DNA from: an uncultured bacterium
GTDB taxonomy: Bacteria > Patescibacteriota > JABMPQ01 > CAVVCK01
NCBI GenBank assembly: GCA_963746775.1
Contig: CAVVCK010000002.1
Coordinates: 232,978-296,977, forward strand
Reading direction: 5' to 3'
DNA: 64,000 bases
A program made the translations under genes and the position numbers. Shown one piece after another: positions 13,176 to 56,019 of the stretch. Under the pieces are notes generated by a model. It had not been told where the DNA came from. It worked only from the letters and a program-made list of their open reading frames with translations, and did no database searches. Positions within the stretch are counted from its first letter, which is position 1, and each line of letters opens with the position of its first letter.

Positions 13176-13535
13176 TTAGTACTTTCTTTCATTGGTTTTA
13201 TATCCTGTATCCTCTGACCAATAAAGAAATAATTTTTTATTAAATCCTCCTTTTTTATTAAAAGCTTTTTTTCTGACAATTTTTATTTCATTTTCTCTAA
13301 TATTAAAAACTTTTTTAATTTCTTCAATAACGTCAACTACATCAGCTAATTCTGTCATAATTTCTTTTTTACTTTTAAGATTAGGTAAGGCGCTCGCCTC
13401 TTCTCCTACCTTTCTTAATAATTCTTTCTTAAAATTTTTATCAGATAGTTCTCTGACTTCATAAGCTCCACCAGATTTTTCAATTACTTGAGGAATTTTA
13501 TCTCTAATTAATTTATTGTAATATATTTTTTTCAT
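13176..13535 (-). CDS. MazG-like/HisE-like nucleoside triphosphate pyrophosphohydrolase (predicted)
   Basis: YNKLIRDKIPQVIEK...EEASAL...ELADVVDVIEEI pattern of all-alpha NTP pyrophosphatases. Confidence 0.45.
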   Translation of the reverse strand: MKKIYYNKLIRDKIPQVIEKSGGAYEVRELSDKNFKKELLRKVGEEASALPNLKSKKEIMTELADVVDVIEEIKKVFNIRENEIKIVRKKAFNKKGGFNKKLFLYWSEDTGYKTNERKY

Positions 13536-14310
13536 CTTTTTTATTAAATATTAAATAAACAAAATACCCTGTAGCAATTAAAATAGGTAAAATACTCAAT
13601 ATTTGTCCCATCGATAATGGAAAACTATCTGGAATAATATGCCTTTCCTTCCAAAATTCTACTATAAACCTGGTTATAAAATATAAAAATATATAGAGAA
13701 ATAAATTAAAATAAGTTGGCAGTTTTTTACTATATTTTTTGTAAATAATAAACAAAATAATAAAAATTATTAAAGACAAGCCCGATTCATATAATTGCGT
13801 TGGATGTCTGGGAAAATCTTCACCTAATTGCTGAAAAACAACTCCCCATTGACCATTAGTAGGTTGGCCAATAATTTCGGAATTAAAAAAATTAGCTAAA
13901 CGAACAAAAGTTGAGACAATGGGAAATCCTAAAATCAAATAATCAATATATTGGCTAAATTTTATTTTATAAACTTTCAACCAAATTAAATAAGCAAATA
14001 AAACTCCTATGGCTGCCCCGTGACTAGCTAGCCCTCCTTTCCAAACTTTTAAAATCTCAATAGGATTAGATAAATAATAGCCTGGCTCATAAAAAAACAC
14101 ATGCCCCAAGCGCGCACCAATAAACATGCCCACAAATAAATATAAAACTACAGTATCGAGGTGATTTAAATTTAATTTTTCCGATTTAAAAATGTGCCAT
14201 AAAAATAAATAAGCCAAAAGCAAGCCTATAGCAAAAAACAGTCCATACCAGCGTATAGTTAGTGGTCCTAATTTTATTAGAATTGGTAAAATGTTTTGGT
14301 AGAAAATCAT
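13513..14310 (-). CDS. lgt: Prolipoprotein diacylglyceryl transferase
   Basis: IRWYGLFFAIGLLLAY N-terminus, conserved Lgt signature region, 265 aa polytopic. Confidence 0.85.
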   Translation of the reverse strand: MIFYQNILPILIKLGPLTIRWYGLFFAIGLLLAYLFLWHIFKSEKLNLNHLDTVVLYLFVGMFIGARLGHVFFYEPGYYLSNPIEILKVWKGGLASHGAAIGVLFAYLIWLKVYKIKFSQYIDYLILGFPIVSTFVRLANFFNSEIIGQPTNGQWGVVFQQLGEDFPRHPTQLYESGLSLIIFIILFIIYKKYSKKLPTYFNLFLYIFLYFITRFIVEFWKERHIIPDSFPLSMGQILSILPILIATGYFVYLIFNKKDEKNILQ

Positions 14311-14321
14311 AATGTTTTTAT

Positions 14322-14462
14322 CCTTCTCCCCTCAGCTGACCACGTATGAAATTCCGTGAAATTTTATAAATTTATTCTTAATCCATAAATTTTATACGTG
14401 GTGAGGAGACAGGGGGGTGCTCCGATGTACATCGGAGCACCCCTCCTAAATTGAAGAGGGGA
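14322..14462. promoter_or_regulatory. Structured divergent intergenic region (lgt <-> udg): nested inverted repeats incl. 14-bp GC hairpin
   Basis: accacgtat...atacgtggt 9-bp arms ~54 nt apart; ggggtgctccgatg-tac-catcggagcacccc perfect hairpin; outer tccttctcccctc / gaggggaagaa arms; CACGTATGAAATT motif related to rpsB-upstream repeats. Confidence 0.4.
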
Positions 14463-14533: not shown

Positions 14534-15115
14534 ATGAAAATAAAACCCAAGATGAAAAATGTTAGAGATAAGGTAGTAGAATGTAAACTTTGTTCTCTAG
14601 CTAAAACTAGAACTCTCCCTGTCATTGGTCAAGGCAGCCACGAGGCTAAAATAATGTTTGTAGGAGAAGCGCCTGGCGCTAATGAAGATAAAACAGGCCA
14701 ACCTTTTTGCGGAAGAGCTGGCAGTATATTGAGTGAACTATTAGAAAGTATTGGAATGAAAAGGGAAGAAGTTTATATCTGTAATATTCTAAAATGCCGT
14801 CCGCCAAATAATAGAGATCCTCTGAAAAGTGAAATAATTGCCTGCACTCCTTATTTATATGAACAAATAAAAATTATAAAACCTAAAATAATTTGTTGCT
14901 TGGGTAATTTTTCAGTCCGCTTTATTATGGAAAAGTTCGGATTAGAAAAAATGATTCAAGGAATATCTAAAATACACGGCCAAATGTACAATGGAAAAAA
15001 TGAAGAAGTAGGAGAAGTTAAAATAGTTCCTATGTATCACCCCGCTGTAGCTACTTATAATGCTAATATGAAAAGTACTTTAATGGAAGATTTTAAAGTT
15101 TTGAAGGATATATAG
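14534..15115 (+). CDS. udg: Uracil-DNA glycosylase, family 4
   Basis: GEAPGANEDKTGQPFCGRAG motif and C-terminal HPA motif region; 193 aa. Confidence 0.85.
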   Translation: MKIKPKMKNVRDKVVECKLCSLAKTRTLPVIGQGSHEAKIMFVGEAPGANEDKTGQPFCGRAGSILSELLESIGMKREEVYICNILKCRPPNNRDPLKSEIIACTPYLYEQIKIIKPKIICCLGNFSVRFIMEKFGLEKMIQGISKIHGQMYNGKNEEVGEVKIVPMYHPAVATYNANMKSTLMEDFKVLKDI

Positions 15116-16143: not shown

Positions 16144-16177
16144 TTATATCTGCAGGGAACAGGCATGCCTGTTCCCT
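16144..16177. repeat. Perfect 32-bp palindrome (intercistronic znuC-znuB), core ACAGGCATGCCTGT
   Basis: ctgcagggaacaggcatgcctgttccctgcag; same 14-nt core recurs inside prmC at 55756..55783; GGGAACA arms recur at 32780..32807. Confidence 0.5.
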
Positions 16178-16192
16178 GCAGAACATTATTTA

Positions 16193-39932: not shown

Positions 39933-40871
39933 TTATCTATTATTTTTTTTAAGCCATTGGAAAGCAGCTGTAGCTGTCACTGCTCCTGAAGCAGCAGCTG
40001 TTATAACTTGTTTCATATTACCAAAGCCATTAGTAACATCACCTGCAGCATAAATCCCTTCCACGTTAGTCTCTCCTCTACCACCAACTTTTATCAAATC
40101 ATTTTTATCCACTTCTACTCCTAGGTTAGATGCTAATCCCATAGCAGGATAAGATCCTATTTCAATAAATATACCATCAACATTTAATTCTTTTTTATCT
40201 TGGAAAGGTTTGTCTAGTTCAATCGATTTTACTATATTTTCTCCTTTTATTTTTAAAACATTAGTACTTAAAATTTCCGTAATTTTTTTATTATTTTGCA
40301 TTCTCTCTATCCAAACAGGTTCTGCTTTATCATAATTATCTTTTCTATAAATTAAATATACTTGCTTTCCTTGCTCTGCTAAAAGTAGAGCGGCTGTCAC
40401 AGCAGAATTACTTCCTCCAACTACTGCCACTGTCTTATCTCGGAAAAAAGCAGCATCACAAGTAGCACAATAACTCACTCCTTTGCCTAAAAATTCCTTT
40501 TCCCCTTCTATGTTTAATTTTCTCCTTTGCGTGCCTGAAGATAATATTACGCTTTTTGCTCTATATTCACCCTTCTCTGTTACTAAAACAAATATATCAC
40601 CTTCTCTTTTTGCGCCTTGTACTTCTTCTTGTCTAAATTCAACCTGTTCTTTATATTCTTCCAAATGCTCTTTGAACTTCATCATCAAATCAAAGCCATT
40701 AATAGATTTATAACCTGGATAATTTTCTACTAGATGAGCTGTAATACAAGTACCACCAATGTCTTTTGATAAAATCAGAGCCTTCATACGATAACGACCG
40801 GCATAAATACCAGCCGACATCCCAGCTGGGCCAGCTCCTATTATTACTAAATCATATGTTTCTTTTTCCAT
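39933..40871 (-). CDS. trxB: Thioredoxin-disulfide reductase
   Basis: YDLVIIGAGPAGMSAG FAD motif, CATCDA redox-active disulfide, second GG NAD(P) motif. Confidence 0.85.
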   Translation of the reverse strand: MEKETYDLVIIGAGPAGMSAGIYAGRYRMKALILSKDIGGTCITAHLVENYPGYKSINGFDLMMKFKEHLEEYKEQVEFRQEEVQGAKREGDIFVLVTEKGEYRAKSVILSSGTQRRKLNIEGEKEFLGKGVSYCATCDAAFFRDKTVAVVGGSNSAVTAALLLAEQGKQVYLIYRKDNYDKAEPVWIERMQNNKKITEILSTNVLKIKGENIVKSIELDKPFQDKKELNVDGIFIEIGSYPAMGLASNLGVEVDKNDLIKVGGRGETNVEGIYAAGDVTNGFGNMKQVITAAASGAVTATAAFQWLKKNNR

Positions 40872-41187
40872 TTTTTTAGAAATTAATTAAAAACAACCCT
40901 ATATTAGAGGATCGTTAAATTTTTACTTATAAATAATAACAAATTATAGAAAATACATCAATACACTTATTTTCTCTAAAAAATAATCAAAAAGCCGCAA
41001 GTTAGATTCACCACAGAAGACTTATTCGAATAGCAATATAGAATTGAGGAGAGAGATTTTTTCCTTTTTACAGGAAAAATTCTGTATATACTATTTGATC
41101 TACTGTAATAGAATTTTCTACTAACTTGCGACTTTCTGAAAAGAATTTTTCTTTCTATTTAAATTATACAATAATATTGATTTTATG

Positions 41188-42384
41188 TCAAAATACAGGG
41201 GTAGGTTTCATAGTTTCTGTAGCTCTTTCTTTGCTATTGCTACTAGAATGCCTGGGGAAAATTATTAAAAGATCAGCTTCTTCTAAAGTATACATAAAAT
41301 CATTATTACCTACCCAACTTATTGTACGACCTTCTATATTGTCTTCCTGATCATATTCGTATTTGACAACTGCCGCATCTCCGTATTTATTTCTATAATC
41401 AATCAAACTTGCCTCCATATTACCTTCATTTCCCCTGTATATCGGCCAAATATATGCTACCCCATCTTTTTTTAATAATCTATCAATTTCATCCCAATAA
41501 ACATCAAATTCTCTTTTTTCCATAACTGGAAACATATGAGTGGAAATAGACCAAGAAGCAATTAATCTATCAAATTGCTTATCTTCAAAAGGCATATCTG
41601 GAAAAGCAGCTTTTACCATTTCCGCTTGCTTATATTTTTTAATAAATCTGTATTCTTGTACTAAATTCTTTATTATTCTTTCTTTTTGCTCTTCAGTAAT
41701 TCCTCTATTTTTAATCATTTCTTCTTCAATCGCTGGCTCAATTACTTTTTTTACTAGATATATATCAGCAAAACCTCTTTGTAATTTATTCACATCATAC
41801 CATAAATTTTTTAAATCATTTTCAGAATCACCCATATCACTGCTATGTTCTTTTTTCTCTTTATTAATTAGTTCTACTATATAACCAGAAAGTTCAGAAA
41901 GCTTTGGATAATTTTCAATTTCTAAATTTGTCATTAACTCTTTCAGTTGTTCTTGCGCCAAATTTATTGCAGTAACTAAACCTTTTCTATTATTAATAAG
42001 TCTATTGCAGAATACTTCAATATTTTTAATATAATCTTCTGCTTTTTTTAAAAATTCCTCTTCATTATACTGAAATTCAGCTTCTTCTCCTAATTCATAA
42101 TCTACATTCGTAACACCCTCTAAATCAAGTGTTTGCCAGGGATCACCAATATTTAATATTTTTCCATCTTCTGGAAATAATTCTTCACGAGCTACTCCTG
42201 ATTCTAAGACATAATCTTCTACCTTTCTACCAGTTAATGCTTTTTGTTCCTTATCTACAATTTCTATTGATCTTATTATTCTTTTTTTTATTCTATCCAA
42301 AATATCTTTATCAGCCTCTTCTATCTGATTGTTAATATCTCTTCTAACATCTTTTTCTGGAACTTTTCTTCCAAATCCTTCCAT
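41188..42384 (-). CDS. Hypothetical protein (398 aa, acidic, no family recognised)
   Basis: Long ORF with consistent local codon usage; coiled-coil-rich N-half, globular C-half. Confidence 0.4.
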   Translation of the reverse strand: MEGFGRKVPEKDVRRDINNQIEEADKDILDRIKKRIIRSIEIVDKEQKALTGRKVEDYVLESGVAREELFPEDGKILNIGDPWQTLDLEGVTNVDYELGEEAEFQYNEEEFLKKAEDYIKNIEVFCNRLINNRKGLVTAINLAQEQLKELMTNLEIENYPKLSELSGYIVELINKEKKEHSSDMGDSENDLKNLWYDVNKLQRGFADIYLVKKVIEPAIEEEMIKNRGITEEQKERIIKNLVQEYRFIKKYKQAEMVKAAFPDMPFEDKQFDRLIASWSISTHMFPVMEKREFDVYWDEIDRLLKKDGVAYIWPIYRGNEGNMEASLIDYRNKYGDAAVVKYEYDQEDNIEGRTISWVGNNDFMYTLEEADLLIIFPRHSSSNSKERATETMKPTPVF

Positions 42385-42465
42385 TTATTTTATTAAATTA
42401 ATAAATATTAAAAAATAATTTCTATGGAATTATTATATTAAAAAATACAATTTGATATTAACATA

Positions 42466-42507
42466 CAGGGGCGGTAGGAATCGAACCTACGTCGCTGGTT
42501 TTGGAGA
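42466..42507 (-). tRNA. 3' portion (nt 31-73) of a split tRNA-Trp(CCA)
   Basis: Minus strand TCTC-CAAA-ACCAG-CGAC-GTAGG-TTCGATT-CCTAC-CGCCCCT-G; anticodon-stem 3' strand ACCAG and acceptor 3' strand CGCCCCT complement the 5' portion at 42978..43010. Confidence 0.6.
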
Positions 42508-42562
42508 CATCTGCCTAGAGCACTAGGCAGATGAGCCATCTGCCTAGAGCACTAGGCAGATG
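42508..42562. repeat. Two tandem copies of a 26-bp perfect palindrome CATCTGCCTAGAGCACTAGGCAGATG
   Basis: 11-bp arms plus 4-nt centre; copies at 42508..42533 and 42537..42562 separated by AGC; directly abut anticodon nt TCTC of the tRNA fragment. Confidence 0.8.
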
Positions 42563-42584
42563 AGACCAGCATCACATTATTAAA

Positions 42585-42854
42585 CTATTTTTTATCTTTT
42601 AATTCCAACCTCTTCATTAAACCGTAATATGCAGAACCGCTATTCTTTAATGATTTCTCTCGTTTTAAAGCTAAGTATTTATCATTAAATGATTCATAAT
42701 AAATAAGCTTAATTGGCAAATATTTTTTAGTACTTTTTACCATCCCTTTCTGATGGCTATCAATTCTTTTCTTTAAGTCACTAGAATATCCGATATAGTA
42801 TTTTCTATTTGGCCTTTTTATTTTAAGAATATATACATAAAACATAATCTTCAT
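42585..42854 (-). CDS. GIY-YIG nuclease-domain protein (UPF0213/YhbQ-like, 89 aa)
   Basis: FYVYILKIKRPNRKYYIGYSSDLKKRIDSHQKG...IKLIYYESFNDKYLALKREKSLK; start codon 1 nt after the 3' end of tRNA-Trp. Confidence 0.75.
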   Translation of the reverse strand: MKIMFYVYILKIKRPNRKYYIGYSSDLKKRIDSHQKGMVKSTKKYLPIKLIYYESFNDKYLALKREKSLKNSGSAYYGLMKRLELKDKK

Positions 42855-42855
42855 A

Positions 42856-42926
42856 CAGGAGCGGTAGGAATCGAACCTACACCTCCGGTTTTGGAGACCG
42901 GAATTCTACCACTAAACTACGCTCCC
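42856..42926 (-). tRNA. tRNA-Trp(CCA), intact
   Basis: GGGAGCG-TA-GTTT-AGTGGTA-GAAT-T-CCGGT-CTCCAAA-ACCGG-AGGT-GTAGG-TTCGATT-CCTAC-CGCTCCT-G. Confidence 0.8.
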
Positions 42927-42952
42927 CTTTTAATAATTTTTAGTTTTGGAGC

Positions 42953-42978
42953 CATCTGCCTAGGGCACTAGGCAGATG
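42953..42978. repeat. Third copy of the 26-bp palindrome (CATCTGCCTAGGGCACTAGGCAGATG)
   Basis: One centre substitution relative to the tandem pair; again inserted after anticodon nt 34 of a tRNA-Trp 5' portion. Confidence 0.8.
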
Positions 42979-43010
42979 AGACCAGCATTCTACCACTAGA
43001 CCACGCCCCC
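42978..43010 (-). tRNA. 5' portion (nt 1-34) of the split tRNA-Trp(CCA)
   Basis: Minus strand GGGGGCG-TG-GTCT-AGTGGTA-GAAT-G-CTGGT-CTC; complements the 3' portion at 42466..42507 in acceptor and anticodon stems. Confidence 0.6.
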
Positions 43011-43192
43011 ATGCACTAAATACCAAAATACAAAAAACAAACTACAAAAATATATTATTGATTTTTATAATTTCTAATTTAGAATTTGTAATTTGTTTGG
43101 AAATTGATTATTGAAAATTGGAAATTTTTAACCAATTTCCTTATATGTACATTTAAAATAAATTGAAGCTTGGCTAGTGCGTCTATTTCGTT

Positions 43193-43348
43193 TCCTTATG
43201 TACCGTATGTTTCTTACAAAACTTGCAATATTTCTTTAATTCCAGCCTTTCTTTCAAAATCTTTTTATTTTTATGAGAATGATAGTTGATATTATGACAT
43301 TCCGTACATTCAAATTTTATCAGATTGTCTTGTGACATATTTTTTTAA
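43193..43348 (-). CDS. rpmG: 50S ribosomal protein L33
   Basis: Minus-strand [54 protein letters not shown] (51 aa; CxxC...CxxC zinc ribbon); below the ORF-track size cutoff. Confidence 0.75.
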
Positions 43349-43530
43349 CTTATTAAATAATTTTATTAATACTATAACTAAAATCCCTATTTAGCAACCT
43401 TATTTCAGAACATATGAAAAATTTTACTTTAGAATATTTATAGAAAAATTTTTCGAACGTTCCAAGACTCAGATATTAAACAAAATCACCTGATTTAAAC
43501 ACTTTTAAATAGAAATCCTAATATAACAAG

Positions 43531-44427
43531 TCATTTCACAAACTTCAAATATTGTATTATCCATATCCCGCCTTCTCCTTCTTTAACTGGCTGTCTTAAA
43601 TAAACCTTATATTCAGAATTCAGATGATTAACTTTCATATAAACTTCGCTATTATTTTTAGATACTATTACACTTTTTATATCTTCCAGATCATATCTAA
43701 ACATATTAGCAATATCATGATTCGTCGTCTCTATGGGATCAAGCCGCCATAAATCATTTCCATTATCAATTGATTGCTGCATACCCTGCATTGTATCCTT
43801 GCTTACTGGAAAATAAAATATTTCAGTGGATTTAAAAGTTTTCTGCCATTCACCATCTTTATTCTTCTCATAGTATTGCAAGGGTCTATCTATAAATGGA
43901 TCATTGCCTTCATTCAATTCCCATATAAAATTATTGGGAGTAAAATCAGCAATTCTTGAACAATTAACAGTTTCGCTTGATTTGACACAATAAACTAAAA
44001 TACGACCCAAGGCATGATCATCGTTATATTCAACATAGAAATTACTATTATTTACAAAAGAAAATTTATTAATGGTCCACTCTGGATCATTGTTAGATAA
44101 AAATGGAGTTAATTGATTTATGTTGTTTTCTGTATAATCAATAAATTCTTTTCTTAAATTATCATCTACGGTTTCAACTTCTCCCTCTCGGTTATAAATA
44201 TCAGAATTTAAAACATTTTCTTTGTTTAAATCTAAATATTTTTGATTAGTATTAATAATATTTTTAGATTTTTCTTGATAAATTTTTAATGAAAAATAAA
44301 ATAAAATACCTAAAATTATGAGGCACAAAATAACTATTAATATTTTACCTGCTTTTTTCATCTTGATCTTATTTATAAATACGAACCACAAAATTAAACA
44401 ACTATCTACAGTGACCACTAAATCCAC
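43531..44427 (-). CDS. Hypothetical membrane-anchored/secreted protein
   Basis: Probable true start at MKKAGKILIVILCLIILGILF signal-anchor; no family recognised. Confidence 0.4.
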   Translation of the reverse strand: MDLVVTVDSCLILWFVFINKIKMKKAGKILIVILCLIILGILFYFSLKIYQEKSKNIINTNQKYLDLNKENVLNSDIYNREGEVETVDDNLRKEFIDYTENNINQLTPFLSNNDPEWTINKFSFVNNSNFYVEYNDDHALGRILVYCVKSSETVNCSRIADFTPNNFIWELNEGNDPFIDRPLQYYEKNKDGEWQKTFKSTEIFYFPVSKDTMQGMQQSIDNGNDLWRLDPIETTNHDIANMFRYDLEDIKSVIVSKNNSEVYMKVNHLNSEYKVYLRQPVKEGEGGIWIIQYLKFVK

Positions 44428-44482
44428 TCCATCCGTAACATTAAAAATAGCGGATAAGGCGGATTGTTGCGGATAGGCGGAA
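44421..44482. repeat. Array of GCGGAT hexamers (8-10-bp spacing) preceded by inverted ATCCAC/ATCCGT
   Basis: aatccactccatccgtaac ... aGCGGATaagGCGGATtgttGCGGATagGCGGAaaaa; same motif (as ATCCGC) clustered at 32849..32886 and 33411..33471. Confidence 0.6.
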
Positions 44483-44571
44483 AAAATATAAAGAATCTTG
44501 TAATCAGCATTTACAATGAAATTCTATCATAATAAAAAAATGTAAACAATCATTTTGTTTACATTTTTTTA

Positions 44572-44643
44572 AGCCACCCGTCGGATTCGGACCGACGACC
44601 TACTGTTTACAAAACAGTTGCTCTACCACTGAGCTAGGGTGGC
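44572..44643 (-). tRNA. tRNA-Thr(TGT)
   Basis: GCCACCC...ACTGTTTTGTAAACAGT (anticodon UGU)...GGTCCGAATCC...GGGTGGCT. Confidence 0.8.
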
Positions 44644-44729
44644 GAATTGCTAAAAATATAAAATATTAAAAAAATAAAAATTTATTTCTTTTCATTTTTT
44701 ATATTATTTTATTTTTATATTTTTACTAT

Positions 44730-44812
44730 TGGGCCGGGCAGGATTTGCACCTGCGTAGACCGAAGCCAGCAGATTTACAGTCTGCCCCATTTGACTACTT
44801 TGGTACCGACCC
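44730..44812 (-). tRNA. tRNA-Tyr(GTA) with long variable arm
   Basis: GGGTCGG...GCAGACTGTAAATCTGC (anticodon GUA)...long variable arm...GCAGGTGCAAATCCTGC-CCGGCCC-A. Confidence 0.7.
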
Positions 44813-44824
44813 ATATTTTTAAAA

Positions 44825-44897
44825 AGCCCACCATCGGATTTGAACCGACGACCTACTCCTTACCATGGAGTTGCTCTACCAACTGAGCTAAGTGGGC
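44825..44897 (-). tRNA. tRNA-Thr(GGT)
   Basis: GCCCACT...ACTCCATGGTAAGGAGT (anticodon GGU)...GGTTCAAATCC...GGTGGGCT. Confidence 0.8.
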
Positions 44898-44919
44898 CTA
44901 GACAACAGCAGTAGCTATA

Positions 44920-45564
44920 CTACCCTTTTAAGAAATTTAACTTATCTAATTCTTCAATAGCTTCACTATCATTAGGATCTATTTTTAAAACCTGTTCATA
45001 AGAAGCTATGGCATCTTTTTTATTGTATTGTTTGGCATATAATCTACCCAATCCTTTGTAAGCTCTTATATTTTTAGAGTCCACTTTTACTACCTCTATA
45101 TAATTACTTTCTGCTTCTTTGTAATTACCGCTGCCTAATTTCTCAGCCGCCTCTTCTAATAAATCAATGACCTTCTTTTCTTCTTCACTTTCTTTTTTAA
45201 TTTCATCGCTAGGCTCATTTTCAGTTTTTTCTTTAACTGTTTTACCCTGATTCAAATCAAGCTTATCTTTAACCAATCCTGACAATAAATCATTTTCATC
45301 TTTTTTATTAATTTTAGTCTTTTCTTTTCTGGCTTTTTTAATACCTGAAAAAATACCTTTAACTATAGACACACTAAATATTCTCAAACGTTTTCCAATA
45401 TATTTTAAAACAGATAATATTCTAGCACCTATAGTCTCTTCTTTATTTCCTTTATCTAGTTCTTTTTGGCTATATTTCGAAGCTTCAGGAAATTTCTTAA
45501 TAATTATGACAATAATAATAACAATAGCAACTAAAATTATAATCTGTGGAATAAAACTAAACAT
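44920..45564 (-). CDS. TPR-repeat protein with N-terminal TM anchor
   Basis: N-terminal hydrophobic segment; C-terminal YIEVVKVDSKNIRAYKGLGRLYAKQYNKKDAIASYEQVLKIDPNDSEA TPR units. Confidence 0.5.
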   Translation of the reverse strand: MFSFIPQIIILVAIVIIIVIIIKKFPEASKYSQKELDKGNKEETIGARILSVLKYIGKRLRIFSVSIVKGIFSGIKKARKEKTKINKKDENDLLSGLVKDKLDLNQGKTVKEKTENEPSDEIKKESEEEKKVIDLLEEAAEKLGSGNYKEAESNYIEVVKVDSKNIRAYKGLGRLYAKQYNKKDAIASYEQVLKIDPNDSEAIEELDKLNFLKG

Positions 45565-45578
45565 ATATTACTTATTAT

Positions 45579-46391
45579 TTAAGCTTTTTTCTTATTTTTC
45601 CAATTAATTTCATCTATTTTAAAATTTTCTCTTTTATCTTCTTTATCTAATCTCACTTGTACTTCTTGTTTCAAAATATTTCGAGATATTACTCGTCCTC
45701 GTCCACTCTTAGTAATAACATCCTCTCCCATCTCTGGCATCCCCACAGCTAGTGCCTTATAGGTTTTTGCTTCATAGGAGAGACAGCACATTAAACGGCC
45801 GCAACAACCTGACAATCTATCACTACCCCGATGTTCCATTTGCTGAACTCTGGCAGTATCTAGTGTAATACTTTCAAATTCTTTTAAAAATTTAGCACAG
45901 CATAATTTCCGACCGCAAATGCCATAATCACCTATTTTAGCGGCTGCATCACGAGAACCAATTTGTTGTAATCTGACTGACTTTTGAAAATTTCTGGTTA
46001 AATCTTTAACTAGTTCCCGAAAATCAATTCTAGCATCAGCTGTGAAATAGAAAGTAACTCTCGATCCATCAAAGGCAAAATGTGCATCAACTAATTTCAT
46101 TACCAACCCTAATCGGCTGACTGACTGACGACAATAATTTACCGCTTCTTCAACTTTTTTATCATATTTTTCAATCTTTTCCAGATCAGTTGTGGTAGCT
46201 ACCCGTAAAACTGGTTTTATTTTTTCACTACTTTCTTCTTCATCCTTTTTCTCAATAGAGGCAACAACACCCGACTCTGTACCCATTTCAGTATCTACTA
46301 TTACAATATCCCCCAATTTTAAATCTAGGCCTGCCGCATCAAAATCATAATTCTTGTCTTGATTATGGAAACGAACACCAGCAACTATCAT
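45579..46391 (-). CDS. ricT: PSP1 C-terminal-domain protein (RicT/YaaT family)
   Basis: VAGVRFHNQDKNYDFDAAGLDLKLGDIVIVDTEMGTESGVV N-terminal motif and Cys-rich GICGRKLCCAKF...SGCCGRLMCCLSYE. Confidence 0.7.
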   Translation of the reverse strand: MIVAGVRFHNQDKNYDFDAAGLDLKLGDIVIVDTEMGTESGVVASIEKKDEEESSEKIKPVLRVATTTDLEKIEKYDKKVEEAVNYCRQSVSRLGLVMKLVDAHFAFDGSRVTFYFTADARIDFRELVKDLTRNFQKSVRLQQIGSRDAAAKIGDYGICGRKLCCAKFLKEFESITLDTARVQQMEHRGSDRLSGCCGRLMCCLSYEAKTYKALAVGMPEMGEDVITKSGRGRVISRNILKQEVQVRLDKEDKRENFKIDEINWKNKKKA

Positions 46392-55116: not shown

Positions 55117-56019
55117 ATGAAATTTAATAAATCGATGTTTATAAAAGAAGTACTAAAATTATCCTTCCAAAAACTTAAAAATATATCTACTACTCCTGAT
55201 CTAGATTCAGAAATATTATTATCACACGTCTTAAAAAATGATCGCGCTTTTCTATTAGCCAATTTAGATAAAAAAATAACTTCCAGCCATTATAAAACTT
55301 TTCAGAAATTAATAACTCGACGCGCTAAACATGAACCTATTGCCTATATTACAAATAATAAGGAATTTTATGGACTTAATTTTTATGTAAATCACGATGT
55401 ATTAATTCCCCGCCCCGAAACTGAATTAATCGTTGAAAATGTTATAAACGTTGTAAACAATCGATCTCAACGCGCAAAGCAATCGAACGTTTTAAACATT
55501 TGCGACGTTGGCACCGGTTCCGGCTGCATCGCTATTGCTCTTGCTAAAAATATCCCTCAAGCCAAAATTTACGCTGCCGATATTTCCAAGAAAGCGCTAG
55601 ATGTAGCTAAATTTAACGCTAAAAGACATAAAGTTTTAAGTAAAATAAAATTCTATAATGGAAATTTATTAGAACCAATTCCTAAAAAAATAAAGTTTAA
55701 TATCATAATTGCTAATCTTCCCTATCTCTCAGAAAAACAATATATAAATATTGTAGAGGACAGGCATGCCTGTCCTCTACAATACGAACCCAAATCAGCC
55801 CTCATAGCAAAAAATCATGGTATGGAATTTTATATAAAATTATTAAAACAAGTTCCAAAATATATTAAAAAAGAAGGCTATATATTATTGGAAATAGATC
55901 CTTCTTTTGAGAATAAAATTATTTTTGAGACCATAAATATTTTAAAAATTAAAAGAAATCAAATAAATATAAAACCCGATCTGCAAGGATTGAGTCGGGT
56001 TTTAACAATTAATATTTAA
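55117..56019 (+). CDS. prmC: Release-factor glutamine N5-methyltransferase PrmC (HemK)
   Basis: CDVGTGSGCIAIALA motif I and IIANLPYL (NPPY-type) motif; follows prfA; contains an in-frame 28-bp perfect palindrome at 55756..55783. Confidence 0.8.
   Translation: MKFNKSMFIKEVLKLSFQKLKNISTTPDLDSEILLSHVLKNDRAFLLANLDKKITSSHYKTFQKLITRRAKHEPIAYITNNKEFYGLNFYVNHDVLIPRPETELIVENVINVVNNRSQRAKQSNVLNICDVGTGSGCIAIALAKNIPQAKIYAADISKKALDVAKFNAKRHKVLSKIKFYNGNLLEPIPKKIKFNIIIANLPYLSEKQYINIVEDRHACPLQYEPKSALIAKNHGMEFYIKLLKQVPKYIKKEGYILLEIDPSFENKIIFETINILKIKRNQINIKPDLQGLSRVLTINI
55756..55783. repeat. 28-bp perfect palindrome GTAGAGGACAGGCATGCCTGTCCTCTAC inside prmC coding sequence
   Basis: Encodes VEDRHACPLQ segment; shares 14-nt core ACAGGCATGCCTGT with the znuC-znuB intercistronic palindrome. 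Confidence 0.6.

Follow-up and report, generated by a model that had tools for sequence, protein, structure and literature searches.

Palindromic hairpins at the junctions of a tRNA-Trp/GIY-YIG cassette inserted in a tRNA-Trp gene of an ultra-small bacterium

A 64-kb stretch of DNA with 31.5% GC (hereafter the window), from contig CAVVCK010000002.1 of an uncultured member of the Patescibacteriota, carries three copies of a 26-nt palindromic element, CATCTGCCTAG-NNNN-CTAGGCAGATG (hereafter PAL). Our results show that these three hairpins mark both edges of a cassette, made of an intact tRNA-Trp gene and a GIY-YIG nuclease gene, that is inserted in a resident tRNA-Trp gene. A first-pass annotation of this DNA had described the hairpins, but overlooked that they cap the halves of a split tRNA-Trp and that the intact tRNA-Trp and the GIY-YIG gene lying between them form an inserted cassette. 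The same design, which seems to be undescribed, recurs in many ultra-small bacteria of the Candidate Phyla Radiation (CPR). The explanation that we favour, to which we give about an even chance of being right, is that PAL serves as the conserved junction element of a homing-type GIY-YIG cassette that would cleave and move into tRNA-Trp and bring its own replacement tRNA. The descriptive core, that is, the junction hairpins of a tRNA-Trp/GIY-YIG cassette, is much firmer than this mechanism as a whole.

The scan for the PAL pattern covered the whole window and returned the same three 26-nt copies that had been annotated (Table 1), with no further copy at up to 3 mismatches and 0 expected from 100 shuffles. 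The earlier description of a perfect 26-bp palindrome with a centre RGCM has to be narrowed, as only the 11-bp arms form a perfect inverted repeat and the 4-nt centre is not palindromic. The three centres read AGCA, AGCA and GGCA on the + strand, which agrees with the R of that consensus, while its M is always A. The flanks are indeed shared among the copies, with GTTTTGGAG(A/C) 5' of the element and AGACCAGCAT 3' of it on the + strand, and a strong hairpin in an AT-rich genome is also what folding indicates (folding energies of -17.4 kcal/mol for the RNA, z = -5.1, and of about -11 kcal/mol for either DNA strand), the arms having 55% GC. Together with the flanking arm, PAL-B and PAL-C may alternatively fold into a single long hairpin of -51 kcal/mol. 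Read on the minus strand, on which all genes of the locus lie, each PAL is followed by (T/G)CT (KCT), a copy of tRNA positions 31-33, so that the unit is 29 nt long (26-nt palindrome + KCT).

The first-pass annotation had placed the insertions in a tRNA-Trp anticodon loop, which is correct for the site but not for the gene: the target is not the tRNA called at 42856-42926 but a second tRNA-Trp gene, split in two halves (tRNA-Trp#1), and the called gene is the intact one inside the insert (tRNA-Trp#2). Neither tRNA finder, ARAGORN or Rfam, reported the split gene, and its T-loop motif at 42477-42487 falls outside every called tRNA. Compared with the matching halves of the intact tRNA, its 5' half shows 85% identity (repeat family D3) and its 3' half 89% (family D2), and the two halves joined in silico give a 71-nt tRNA-Trp(CCA) that is accepted by ARAGORN. 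The joined tRNA differs from tRNA-Trp#2 at 10 positions, with compensatory changes in the acceptor and anticodon stems; both are therefore real tRNAs, or were until recently. At present tRNA-Trp#2 is the sole uninterrupted, hairpin-free tRNA-Trp of the window.

The insert that splits tRNA-Trp#1 between U33 and C34 is 474 bp long and has a hairpin at each end. On the minus strand the order is 5' half, PAL, GCT-CCAAAAC, intact tRNA, GIY-YIG, ATGCTGGTCT, PAL-GCT-PAL-TCT and 3' half. We place the break at U33/C34 with a 3-nt repeat, but since (T/G)CT recurs after each unit it can be written anywhere within TCTC, and the position proposed earlier, after C34 in TCTC^CAAA, is an equivalent choice. 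Direct repeats of arm+PAL+arm (40 nt, 98% identity; family D1) bound the cassette. The piece of arm at the right junction is identical to the end of the tRNA-Trp#1 5' half (family D1) and is also found in L001, one of the related loci described below.

Table 1. Features of the tRNA-Trp/GIY-YIG locus in the window, in minus-strand order
Feature	Position	Strand	Basis or remark
rpmG (ribosomal protein L33)	43183..43338	-	Pfam Ribosomal_L33, E = 7.8e-18; upstream neighbour, context marker
tRNA-Trp#1 5' half, positions 1-33, GGGGGCGTGGTCTAGTGGTAGAATGCTGGTCT, last base U33	42979..43010	-	sequence reading
PAL-A, left junction, CATCTGCCTAG-TGCC-CTAGGCAGATG on the tRNA-sense strand	42953..42978	.	pattern scan, folding
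Left arm mimic, GCT + CCAAAAC, copy of tRNA positions 31-40	42943..42952	-	sequence reading
Spacer, 16 nt	42927..42942	-	between left arm mimic and tRNA-Trp#2
Intact tRNA-Trp#2 (CCA)	42856..42926	-	ARAGORN; Rfam tRNA, 70.5 bits
GIY-YIG nuclease open reading frame (ORF), 89 aa as listed	42585..42854	-	Pfam GIY-YIG, E = 3.6e-14
Spacer, 12 nt	42573..42584	-	between GIY-YIG ORF and right arm mimic
Right arm mimic ATGCTGGTCT, copy of tRNA positions 24-33	42563..42572	-	sequence reading
PAL-B (42537-42562), GCT (42534-42536) and PAL-C (42508-42533), two tandem 29-nt units, right junction	42508..42562	.	
TCT, copy of positions 31-33 after the last unit	42505..42507	-	sequence reading
tRNA-Trp#1 3' half, positions 34-73, CCAAAACCAGCGACGTAGGTTCGATTCCTACCGCCCCTG (begins CCAAAACCAGC)	42466..42504	-	sequence reading

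Related loci were found through homologues of the GIY-YIG protein only, not through the hairpin or the tRNA. A collection of 5.8 billion proteins returned 124 matches, most of them on contigs of 1-2 kb, and the named sources are Pacebacteria, Collierbacteria, Moranbacteria and Vogelbacteria, all of them CPR/Patescibacteria. With identical sets merged (L001=L002=L003; L004=L005; L007=L008; L014=L015; L016=L017; L022=L023-L025), ten independent tRNA-Trp loci were compared: L001, L004, L006, L007, L014, L016, L020, L021, L022 and the window itself. The nuclease gene adjoins an intact tRNA-Trp and one or two tRNA-Trp relics in all ten, and rpmG lies upstream in L001, L004, L006, L007, L014 and L021 as well as in the window. 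The anticodon arm of the relics reads GGTCT-[26-nt hairpin]-(T/G)CT-CCAAAAC in 9 of the 10 loci; in L022, which has a more distant nuclease, a 24-nt hairpin, CCCCGCTG-CTCACGAA-CAGCGGGG, joins the D-arm to TCCAAAACC. The (T/G)CT-CCAAAAC seen 3' of the hairpin in the left arm mimic of the window was found in every related locus. A hairpin occupies the break position in 14 of 14 relic arms and in none of the 10 intact tRNAs. The site specificity and the association with an adjacent GIY-YIG gene that had been suspected from the window alone recur, then, across ten CPR tRNA-Trp loci, and every copy, here and in the relatives, lies within a tRNA-Trp relic.

The loci fall into three arrangements. In the first, a 5' relic, hairpin and arm piece precede the GIY-YIG gene and the intact tRNA (L006, L014, L016, L020 and L022); in the second, the intact tRNA and the GIY-YIG gene precede an arm piece, hairpin and 3' relic (L001); in the third, relics are found on both sides (window, L004, L007 and L021). 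A single tRNA half is therefore kept in 6 of the 10 loci (L001, L006, L014, L016, L020 and L022). L021 resembles the window in having two pristine, mutually fitting outer halves around a different inner tRNA, and the simplest reading is a cassette of tRNA and nuclease gene inserted into a resident tRNA-Trp. An assembly artefact was rejected, since the same design is present in independent ENA, JGI, Logan and NCBI assemblies. Searches with the DNA pattern itself gave 0 matches in public genome contigs for the exact PAL and, for a degenerate version, 2 matches in genome contigs and 3 in metagenome contigs. These five were set aside as chance matches, as no tRNA is found at any of them and the three metagenomic ones lie in high-GC sequence. 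Viral contigs yielded no match to either the nuclease protein or the DNA pattern.

Comparison of the hairpins revealed two main families of the same size (11 + 4 + 11) and with the same outer bases, CAYC...GRTG. PAL1, CATCNGCCYAG-N4-CTRGGCNGATG, is found in the window, L001, L007 and L020, and PAL2, CACCYGTCRCT-CACG-AGYGACRGGTG, in L004, L006, L014, L016 and L021, the last with extra arm variants. Over 16 distinct units, 97.7% of the cells pair, compared with about 35% in slid registers; double-sided changes affect 7 of the 11 pairs (37 cells), and 0 of 500 shuffles reach these pairing and covariation values. L007 alone has four different, internally complementary hairpin variants within one genome, which indicates that palindromy itself is maintained rather than a fixed protein-binding sequence. 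Arrays have 1, 2 (at the right junction of the window and on either side in L007) or 4 units (L020), always with a period of 29 nt; as the repeat after the last unit, PAL2 loci always have TCT and PAL1 loci usually GCT. Nuclease identities are 69-78% within the PAL1 group and 69-83% within the PAL2 group, but 55-72% between them. Because the hairpin family follows the nuclease clade, hairpin and nuclease are inherited together.

The linkage to the nuclease bears directly on a rival reading, in which PAL would be an autonomous mobile palindrome, similar to a GC cluster, a miniature inverted-repeat transposable element or a repetitive extragenic palindromic (REP) sequence, which inserts at TCT with a 3-bp duplication, is moved by an enzyme other than the GIY-YIG protein and persists only where it does no harm, in dead tRNA relics. 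The TCT/KCT repeat after each 29-nt unit and the arrays of 1-4 non-identical units are what such an element might leave behind, and both target duplications and tandem arrays are known in yeast mitochondrial GC clusters (PMC4478555). Hairpins are also present in other loops of the relics (PAL2-like ones in the D-loops of 5' relics, others in the T-loop), and GC-rich perfect palindromes of unrelated sequence are present elsewhere in the window, including one that lies in frame in prmC. However, PAL occurs neither elsewhere in the 64 kb nor outside tRNA-Trp relics in the related loci, and the hairpin family co-varies with the GIY-YIG clade, which argues for linkage to the nuclease. In addition, the arrays of L007 and L020 share the order of their units, which suggests inheritance rather than repeated independent insertion. 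We therefore consider autonomous movement of PAL unlikely.

The nuclease of the window is a bare GIY-YIG catalytic domain, covered by the Pfam profile over residues 4-73, and it stands alone, as do its homologues (83-89 aa). Y8, Y20, G22, R30, H34 and E66 are invariant in 43 homologues, and the active site is intact. The nearest solved relatives by sequence are the UPF0213 proteins BH0048 (PDB 1zg2, E = 3.4e-4) and EF2693. With the predicted structure (pLDDT 93.4) as query, Foldseek ranked 1zg2 (BH0048) first, followed by Slx1 (7cq2, 6sei, 4xm5) together with the plant SLX1-lineage protein At-HIGLE, and then by UvrC, with no I-TevI-type homing enzyme among the matches. Sequence and predicted fold both place the protein in the stand-alone Slx1/UPF0213 (YhbQ-like) GIY-YIG lineage. 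The UPF0213-type stand-alone family is large, with 7,464 cluster representatives at E <= 1e-10, mostly of 80-130 aa, and we know of no established function for these numerous proteins. Slx1 is described as a structure-selective nuclease that acts on branched DNA (PMC6902002, PMC9071465), and prokaryotic stand-alone Slx1-like proteins were noted in 2006 to be associated or fused with methyltransferases, one of them an orthologue of the tRNA methyltransferase TrmH (PMC1564403). A role in a defence system was rejected, as the only PADLOC match had E = 0.0026 and nothing was found in PHROGs.

As listed, the nuclease ORF begins one base after tRNA-Trp#2, or 10 nt after the discriminator base if the second ATG is used. 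The homologues begin with MYYVY or MFYVY, and for this reason the true start is probably the second ATG, at 42845, giving MFYVYIL. The exact protein is absent among the 124 matches (best identity 75%); the neighbouring 398-aa protein has a 100%-identical entry (P0121) in the same collection, encoded on a 547-kb contig that presumably belongs to the source genome. The nuclease gene was probably never called in the annotation of the source genome. Across the loci, the gap between a tRNA or arm mimic and the start of the nuclease gene is 1-25 nt, and that between its stop and the next tRNA 1-28 nt; most of these genes have no evident Shine-Dalgarno ribosome-binding site ahead of them. Since the genes are squeezed between tRNA structures and mostly have no evident ribosome-binding site, they are probably co-transcribed with the tRNA and would be released by tRNA processing.

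It is possible that PAL acts at the level of such transcripts, as a hairpin that stabilises tRNA-punctuated GIY-YIG and rpmG messages or directs their processing, by blocking exonucleases or serving as an RNase III site, its position being historical. An RNA processing signal was among the roles proposed earlier; we do not favour it and regard it as improbable. The stability of the hairpin as RNA, the distance of only 1-28 nt between the nuclease ORFs and tRNAs or arm mimics, mostly with no evident Shine-Dalgarno sequence, and the PAL2 centre, which in 4 of the 6 distinct units is CACG on the sense strand, would all suit an RNA function. Among the mismatch events, four are T.G wobbles on the tRNA-sense strand, a point in favour of RNA, but two are C.A on that strand and would be wobbles on the antisense strand only, so no clear strand bias emerges. 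The hairpin centres moreover tend to self-complementarity (AGCT, CGCG), as would sooner be expected of a palindrome in DNA than of a loop under selection in RNA. The hairpin also has no U-tract after it, and an RNA role does not explain the exact 33/34 placement inside the copy of the arm. The related possibility of an intrinsic terminator was rejected, since no terminator-like site was found in 42300-43500 and the sequence after PAL, GCTCCAAAAC or AGACCAGCAT depending on the strand, is no U-tract.

The two fitting halves raise the question of whether the insert could be a giant tRNA intron or a cis-split tRNA, in which PAL-A would pair with PAL-B or PAL-C and an endonuclease and RNA ligase would regenerate tRNA-Trp#1. 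In the window and in L021 both halves are undamaged and fit each other, and the self-complementary PALs of the left and right sides could form a helix of about 26 bp. Such pairing would resemble that of Nanoarchaeum split tRNAs, whose halves are brought together by leader/trailer pairing. This reading is hard to reconcile with the other loci, however, as 6 of 10 have one half only, relics decay or gain insertions (L001, L004 and L007), and an intact tRNA-Trp is present in every locus. The junctions have no bulge-helix-bulge; in the fold, the hairpin projects from the loop on linkers of 2 nt and 8 nt. No group I ribozyme was detected either, and the host is bacterial, as judged from the discriminator base G73 of tRNA-Trp and the rpmG context. 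We hold an RNA-spliced insert to be most improbable. The two standard intron types were also rejected as such: a permissive Rfam scan (E up to 1) of 40000-46000 gave no intron family and the insert is filled by the tRNA and the ORF, which speaks against a group I intron, and an archaeal-type bulge-helix-bulge intron or split tRNA is contradicted by the missing motif, the single halves of 6 of 10 loci and the intact tRNA-Trp that is always present.

At the DNA level, the geometry of PAL, with two 11-bp inverted arms around a short centre, would also suit a site-specific recombinase, as a core site of the dif, lox or attC kind, with the cassette integrating and excising between PAL copies. The cassette ends are direct repeats of arm+PAL+arm, 40 nt long and 98% identical, and islands that integrate in tRNA genes typically enter the anticodon loop and regenerate the tRNA (PMC4383910). 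Yet the 474-bp cassette has no recombinase gene, its GIY-YIG gene being the sole ORF; the arm sequences vary freely, even within one genome (four variants in L007), which is not like a core site bound by a specific protein, and excision would leave behind a dead, PAL-interrupted tRNA-Trp. A recombinase site is thus very unlikely. An island integrated in tRNA-encoding DNA was rejected on similar grounds, because the insert holds only tRNA-Trp and the GIY-YIG gene and no tyrosine or serine integrase. Of the roles listed by the first-pass annotation, the IS200/IS605-like hairpin (IStron/TnpB) is the one that finds no support, since neither TnpA, which was sought in the insert of the window only, nor TnpB is present in the insert, the two ends have the same palindrome, and every unit has a (T/G)CT repeat after it. 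A REP element with its RAYT transposase was rejected as well: the 64 kb hold three copies, all at one locus, and the associated gene encodes a GIY-YIG protein.

Two of the roles proposed earlier, a target-specific miniature hairpin element and a site for the adjacent nuclease, are plausible and are combined in the explanation that we favour, the homing-type cassette. In this proposal, the nuclease would break the anticodon-arm DNA of tRNA-Trp at about 33/34, and repair off a cassette-bearing copy would install the cassette, with the tRNA halves acting as homology arms. The working tRNA-Trp brought by the cassette would let the cell survive. The 29-nt unit would then lie precisely at the break point in all redundant copies of the target arm, and with this interruption the relic arms would no longer be substrates. 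Alternatively or additionally, an extruded hairpin or cruciform may be the structure that is recognised, considering that the enzyme has no DNA-binding domain and resembles Slx1. Units would be added or copied at the regenerated CT|CC site, giving rise to the KCT repeats and the tandem arrays. Insertion of PAL in the sole functional tRNA-Trp would be lethal and therefore would never be seen.

Several points weigh against the homing-type cassette. Typical homing endonucleases carry a DNA-binding domain, which the window protein, by its size, does not, and a protein of 83-89 aa without one is very small for a sequence-specific homing endonuclease. In L004, L006, L007, L014 and L016 the anticodon arm of the intact tRNA equals that of the relic, and it is consequently not accounted for how the working gene escapes cleavage; only in the window and L021 does the inner tRNA have a different anticodon stem. 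The copies of the arm inside the insert (CCAAAAC and ATGCTGGTCT) are superfluous in a simple homing model. Quasi-palindromes can be 'corrected' by intra-strand template switching, which produces compensatory changes without selection, and a possible hairpin-less relic scrap, GGGGTCT-AGAGAG, lies upstream of the first GIY-YIG gene of L007. A more daring variant, which we put forward as a tentative and rather doubtful idea, is a natural 'cleave-and-rescue' element of CPR bacteria, in which a minimal Slx1-like nuclease would use the PAL hairpin or cruciform in cis, within the arm mimic, to break the only tRNA-Trp gene of the cell and would install a replacement tRNA on which the host becomes dependent.

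The locus appears to turn over among relatives. L001 is syntenic with the window (74% identity in the upstream gene, 85% in rpmG and 85% in the block of tRNA, GIY-YIG and right junction), and it has one hybrid intact tRNA, whose 5' half is positionally orthologous to the split 5' half of the window. Its GIY-YIG gene is frame-broken, with a 50-aa remnant 92% identical to the window protein, and it retains only a 3' relic with one PAL. L007, on the other hand, carries two nuclease genes. An empty site in a close relative was sought through the neighbouring 398-aa gene and none was found, the next relatives (46-48% identity) not being syntenic.

The relics themselves decay and gain further GC-rich hairpins in their D- and T-loops. 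T-loop hairpins, TCCCGCC...GGCGGGA and TCCGCCACAGGCGGA, were seen in a tRNA-Trp relic of L007 (3040-3150), and D-loop hairpins in relics of L004 (2870-2930), L014 (470-520) and L016 (1290-1340), several of them with the centre CTCACGA. Judged from these sequences, hairpins seem to be drawn to each of the three loops of defunct tRNA copies. L004 also has a distant GIY-YIG gene (38% identity) directly upstream of a tRNA-Tyr (1100-1580, 740-930), preceded by 5' tRNA-Tyr relics that are joined to the GC-rich hairpins TCCCGCCTTGGCGGGA and TCCCGCGGCCGCGGGA, and in the same locus a tRNA-Thr(GGT) has a partial 3' duplicate downstream that begins in the anticodon loop. The phenomenon is therefore not limited to tRNA-Trp. 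In L018 (2430-2800), and also in L019, a GIY-YIG homologue (56% identity) is inserted in a 23S rRNA gene; the L018 insert lies between the two arms of a 16-nt inverted repeat, CCCCGCCCTAAATAAT / ATTATTTAGGGCGGGG, together with a short repeated piece of the rRNA target, GCTTAACC. This is how the loci should look if homing-type selfish genes enter structured-RNA genes, decay there and enter them again.

Other palindromes were observed in the window. A 36-bp perfect palindrome, TATTGTAGAGGACAGGCATGCCTGTCCTCTACAATA, at 55749-55784 corresponds to 12 codons in frame in prmC (55117-56019) and sits between the NLPY and YEP motifs, where the protein has about 15 extra residues relative to the PrmC profile; this would be consistent with an in-frame insertion of a palindrome, a kind of event known from the Rickettsia palindromic elements. 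A 34-bp perfect palindrome, TCTGCAGGGAACAGGCATGCCTGTTCCCTGCAGA, at 16149-16182 between two minus-strand ORFs shares the core ACAGGCATGCCTGT with it, so that the two would represent a second palindrome family in the genome, and TTATTTAT on both of its sides may be a target duplication. A third, a 30-bp GC-rich perfect palindrome at 14414-14443, GGGGTGCTCCGATGTACATCGGAGCACCCC, is unrelated to PAL in sequence and placed in the divergent intergenic region between ORFs 13513-14310 (-) and 14534-15115 (+). The neighbouring 398-aa ORF (41188-42384), immediately downstream of the split tRNA, has a weak match to Methyltransf_11 (class I methyltransferase; E = 4.7e-5); its homologues occur on CPR-like contigs only, and its nearest relatives, 46-48% identical, are not beside a tRNA-Trp.

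If the proposed cassette is real, an element of less than 0.5 kb would bring together a bare nuclease domain of about 85 aa, a substitute for the essential gene that it disrupts and one conserved palindrome per junction, which would make it a very small self-contained selfish element. The locus also suggests a role for orphan Slx1/UPF0213-type nucleases in the targeting of structured-RNA genes, here tRNA-Trp, tRNA-Tyr and 23S rRNA. Were the 'cleave-and-rescue' idea true, PAL would be the first defined substrate and end structure of a GIY-YIG-driven, palindrome-ended mobile element, and the large stand-alone UPF0213-type family would gain a function. How short GC-rich palindromes move in AT-rich genomes has been an open question since the yeast GC clusters, and here one nuclease, one palindrome and one target are found together. 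On the practical side, such loci yield tRNA halves and pseudo-tRNAs that confuse tRNA annotation, and they break metagenome assemblies, as most homologue-bearing contigs are only 1-2 kb long.

No description of this arrangement was found in the literature on GIY-YIG proteins with tRNA, on Patescibacteria or on YhbQ, but parts of it recall several known systems. Group I introns are known in tRNA anticodon loops of Patescibacteria, in a paper that names neither Trp nor GIY-YIG (PMC13011429); unlike these, the present insert has no ribozyme. In islands that integrate in tRNA genes, as catalogued by Islander, the split tRNA gene is regenerated by the element (PMC4383910). As in those islands, the element described here restores the tRNA gene and the displaced fragment marks its far end, but the islands span kilobases and use tyrosine integrases, whereas this element has less than 0.5 kb and no integrase, and its displaced fragments hold a palindrome in the anticodon loop. 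The nuclease gene flanked by short palindromes, with structure rather than exact sequence conserved, is also reminiscent of REP/RAYT systems. RAYTs are HUH/Y1 enzymes, and REPs, which have a conserved GTAG head, lie scattered between genes in tens to hundreds of copies; neither such an enzyme nor dispersed GTAG-headed copies are found here.

The GC clusters of yeast mitochondria, in which target duplications and tandem arrays are seen, move by an unknown mechanism; mobilisation by resident endonucleases has been proposed but is unproven (PMC4478555). PAL shares with them the short GC-rich hairpin in an AT-rich genome, the flanking direct repeats, the arrays, and a conserved hairpin with variable loops. 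It differs in being confined to position 33/34 of the tRNA-Trp anticodon arm, the clusters being dispersed and mainly intergenic, and in being co-inherited with one nuclease gene. Among nucleases, the free-standing GIY-YIG enzyme SegB of phage T4 cuts a related genome in its tRNA gene region and drives the inheritance of its own gene and of flanking tRNA genes (PMC2330249). In both cases a GIY-YIG gene sits among tRNA genes, but the best folds for the window protein are Slx1/UPF0213, with no I-TevI-type structure among the matches, which sets it apart from SegB-type enzymes. To our knowledge, neither target-gene relics nor junction palindromes have been described for SegB.

The closest parallel is offered by the mORFs of fungal mitochondria, in which the native part of a target gene is displaced by a substitute that arrives with an endonuclease ORF; examples include atp6 of Allomyces and atp6, atp9, cox2 and nad3 of Glomus, with LAGLIDADG enzymes or, in atp9, a GIY-YIG enzyme (PMC3630166). 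Here too, an endonuclease ORF in an essential gene comes with a foreign functional copy and the native piece is left as a relic. The mORF state is polymorphic among close relatives, and in our case the syntenic L001 differs from the window in architecture and has a decayed nuclease. Unlike in mORFs, the target is a bacterial tRNA gene, the cassette can carry a whole replacement gene with relics on both sides, the enzyme is a bare Slx1/UPF0213-type domain of about 85 aa, and each relic bears at its break a conserved palindrome whose arms covary. The system is thus best filed as a homing-type endonuclease cassette with target-gene replacement, distinguished by its covarying junction palindrome and its minimal Slx1-like nuclease.

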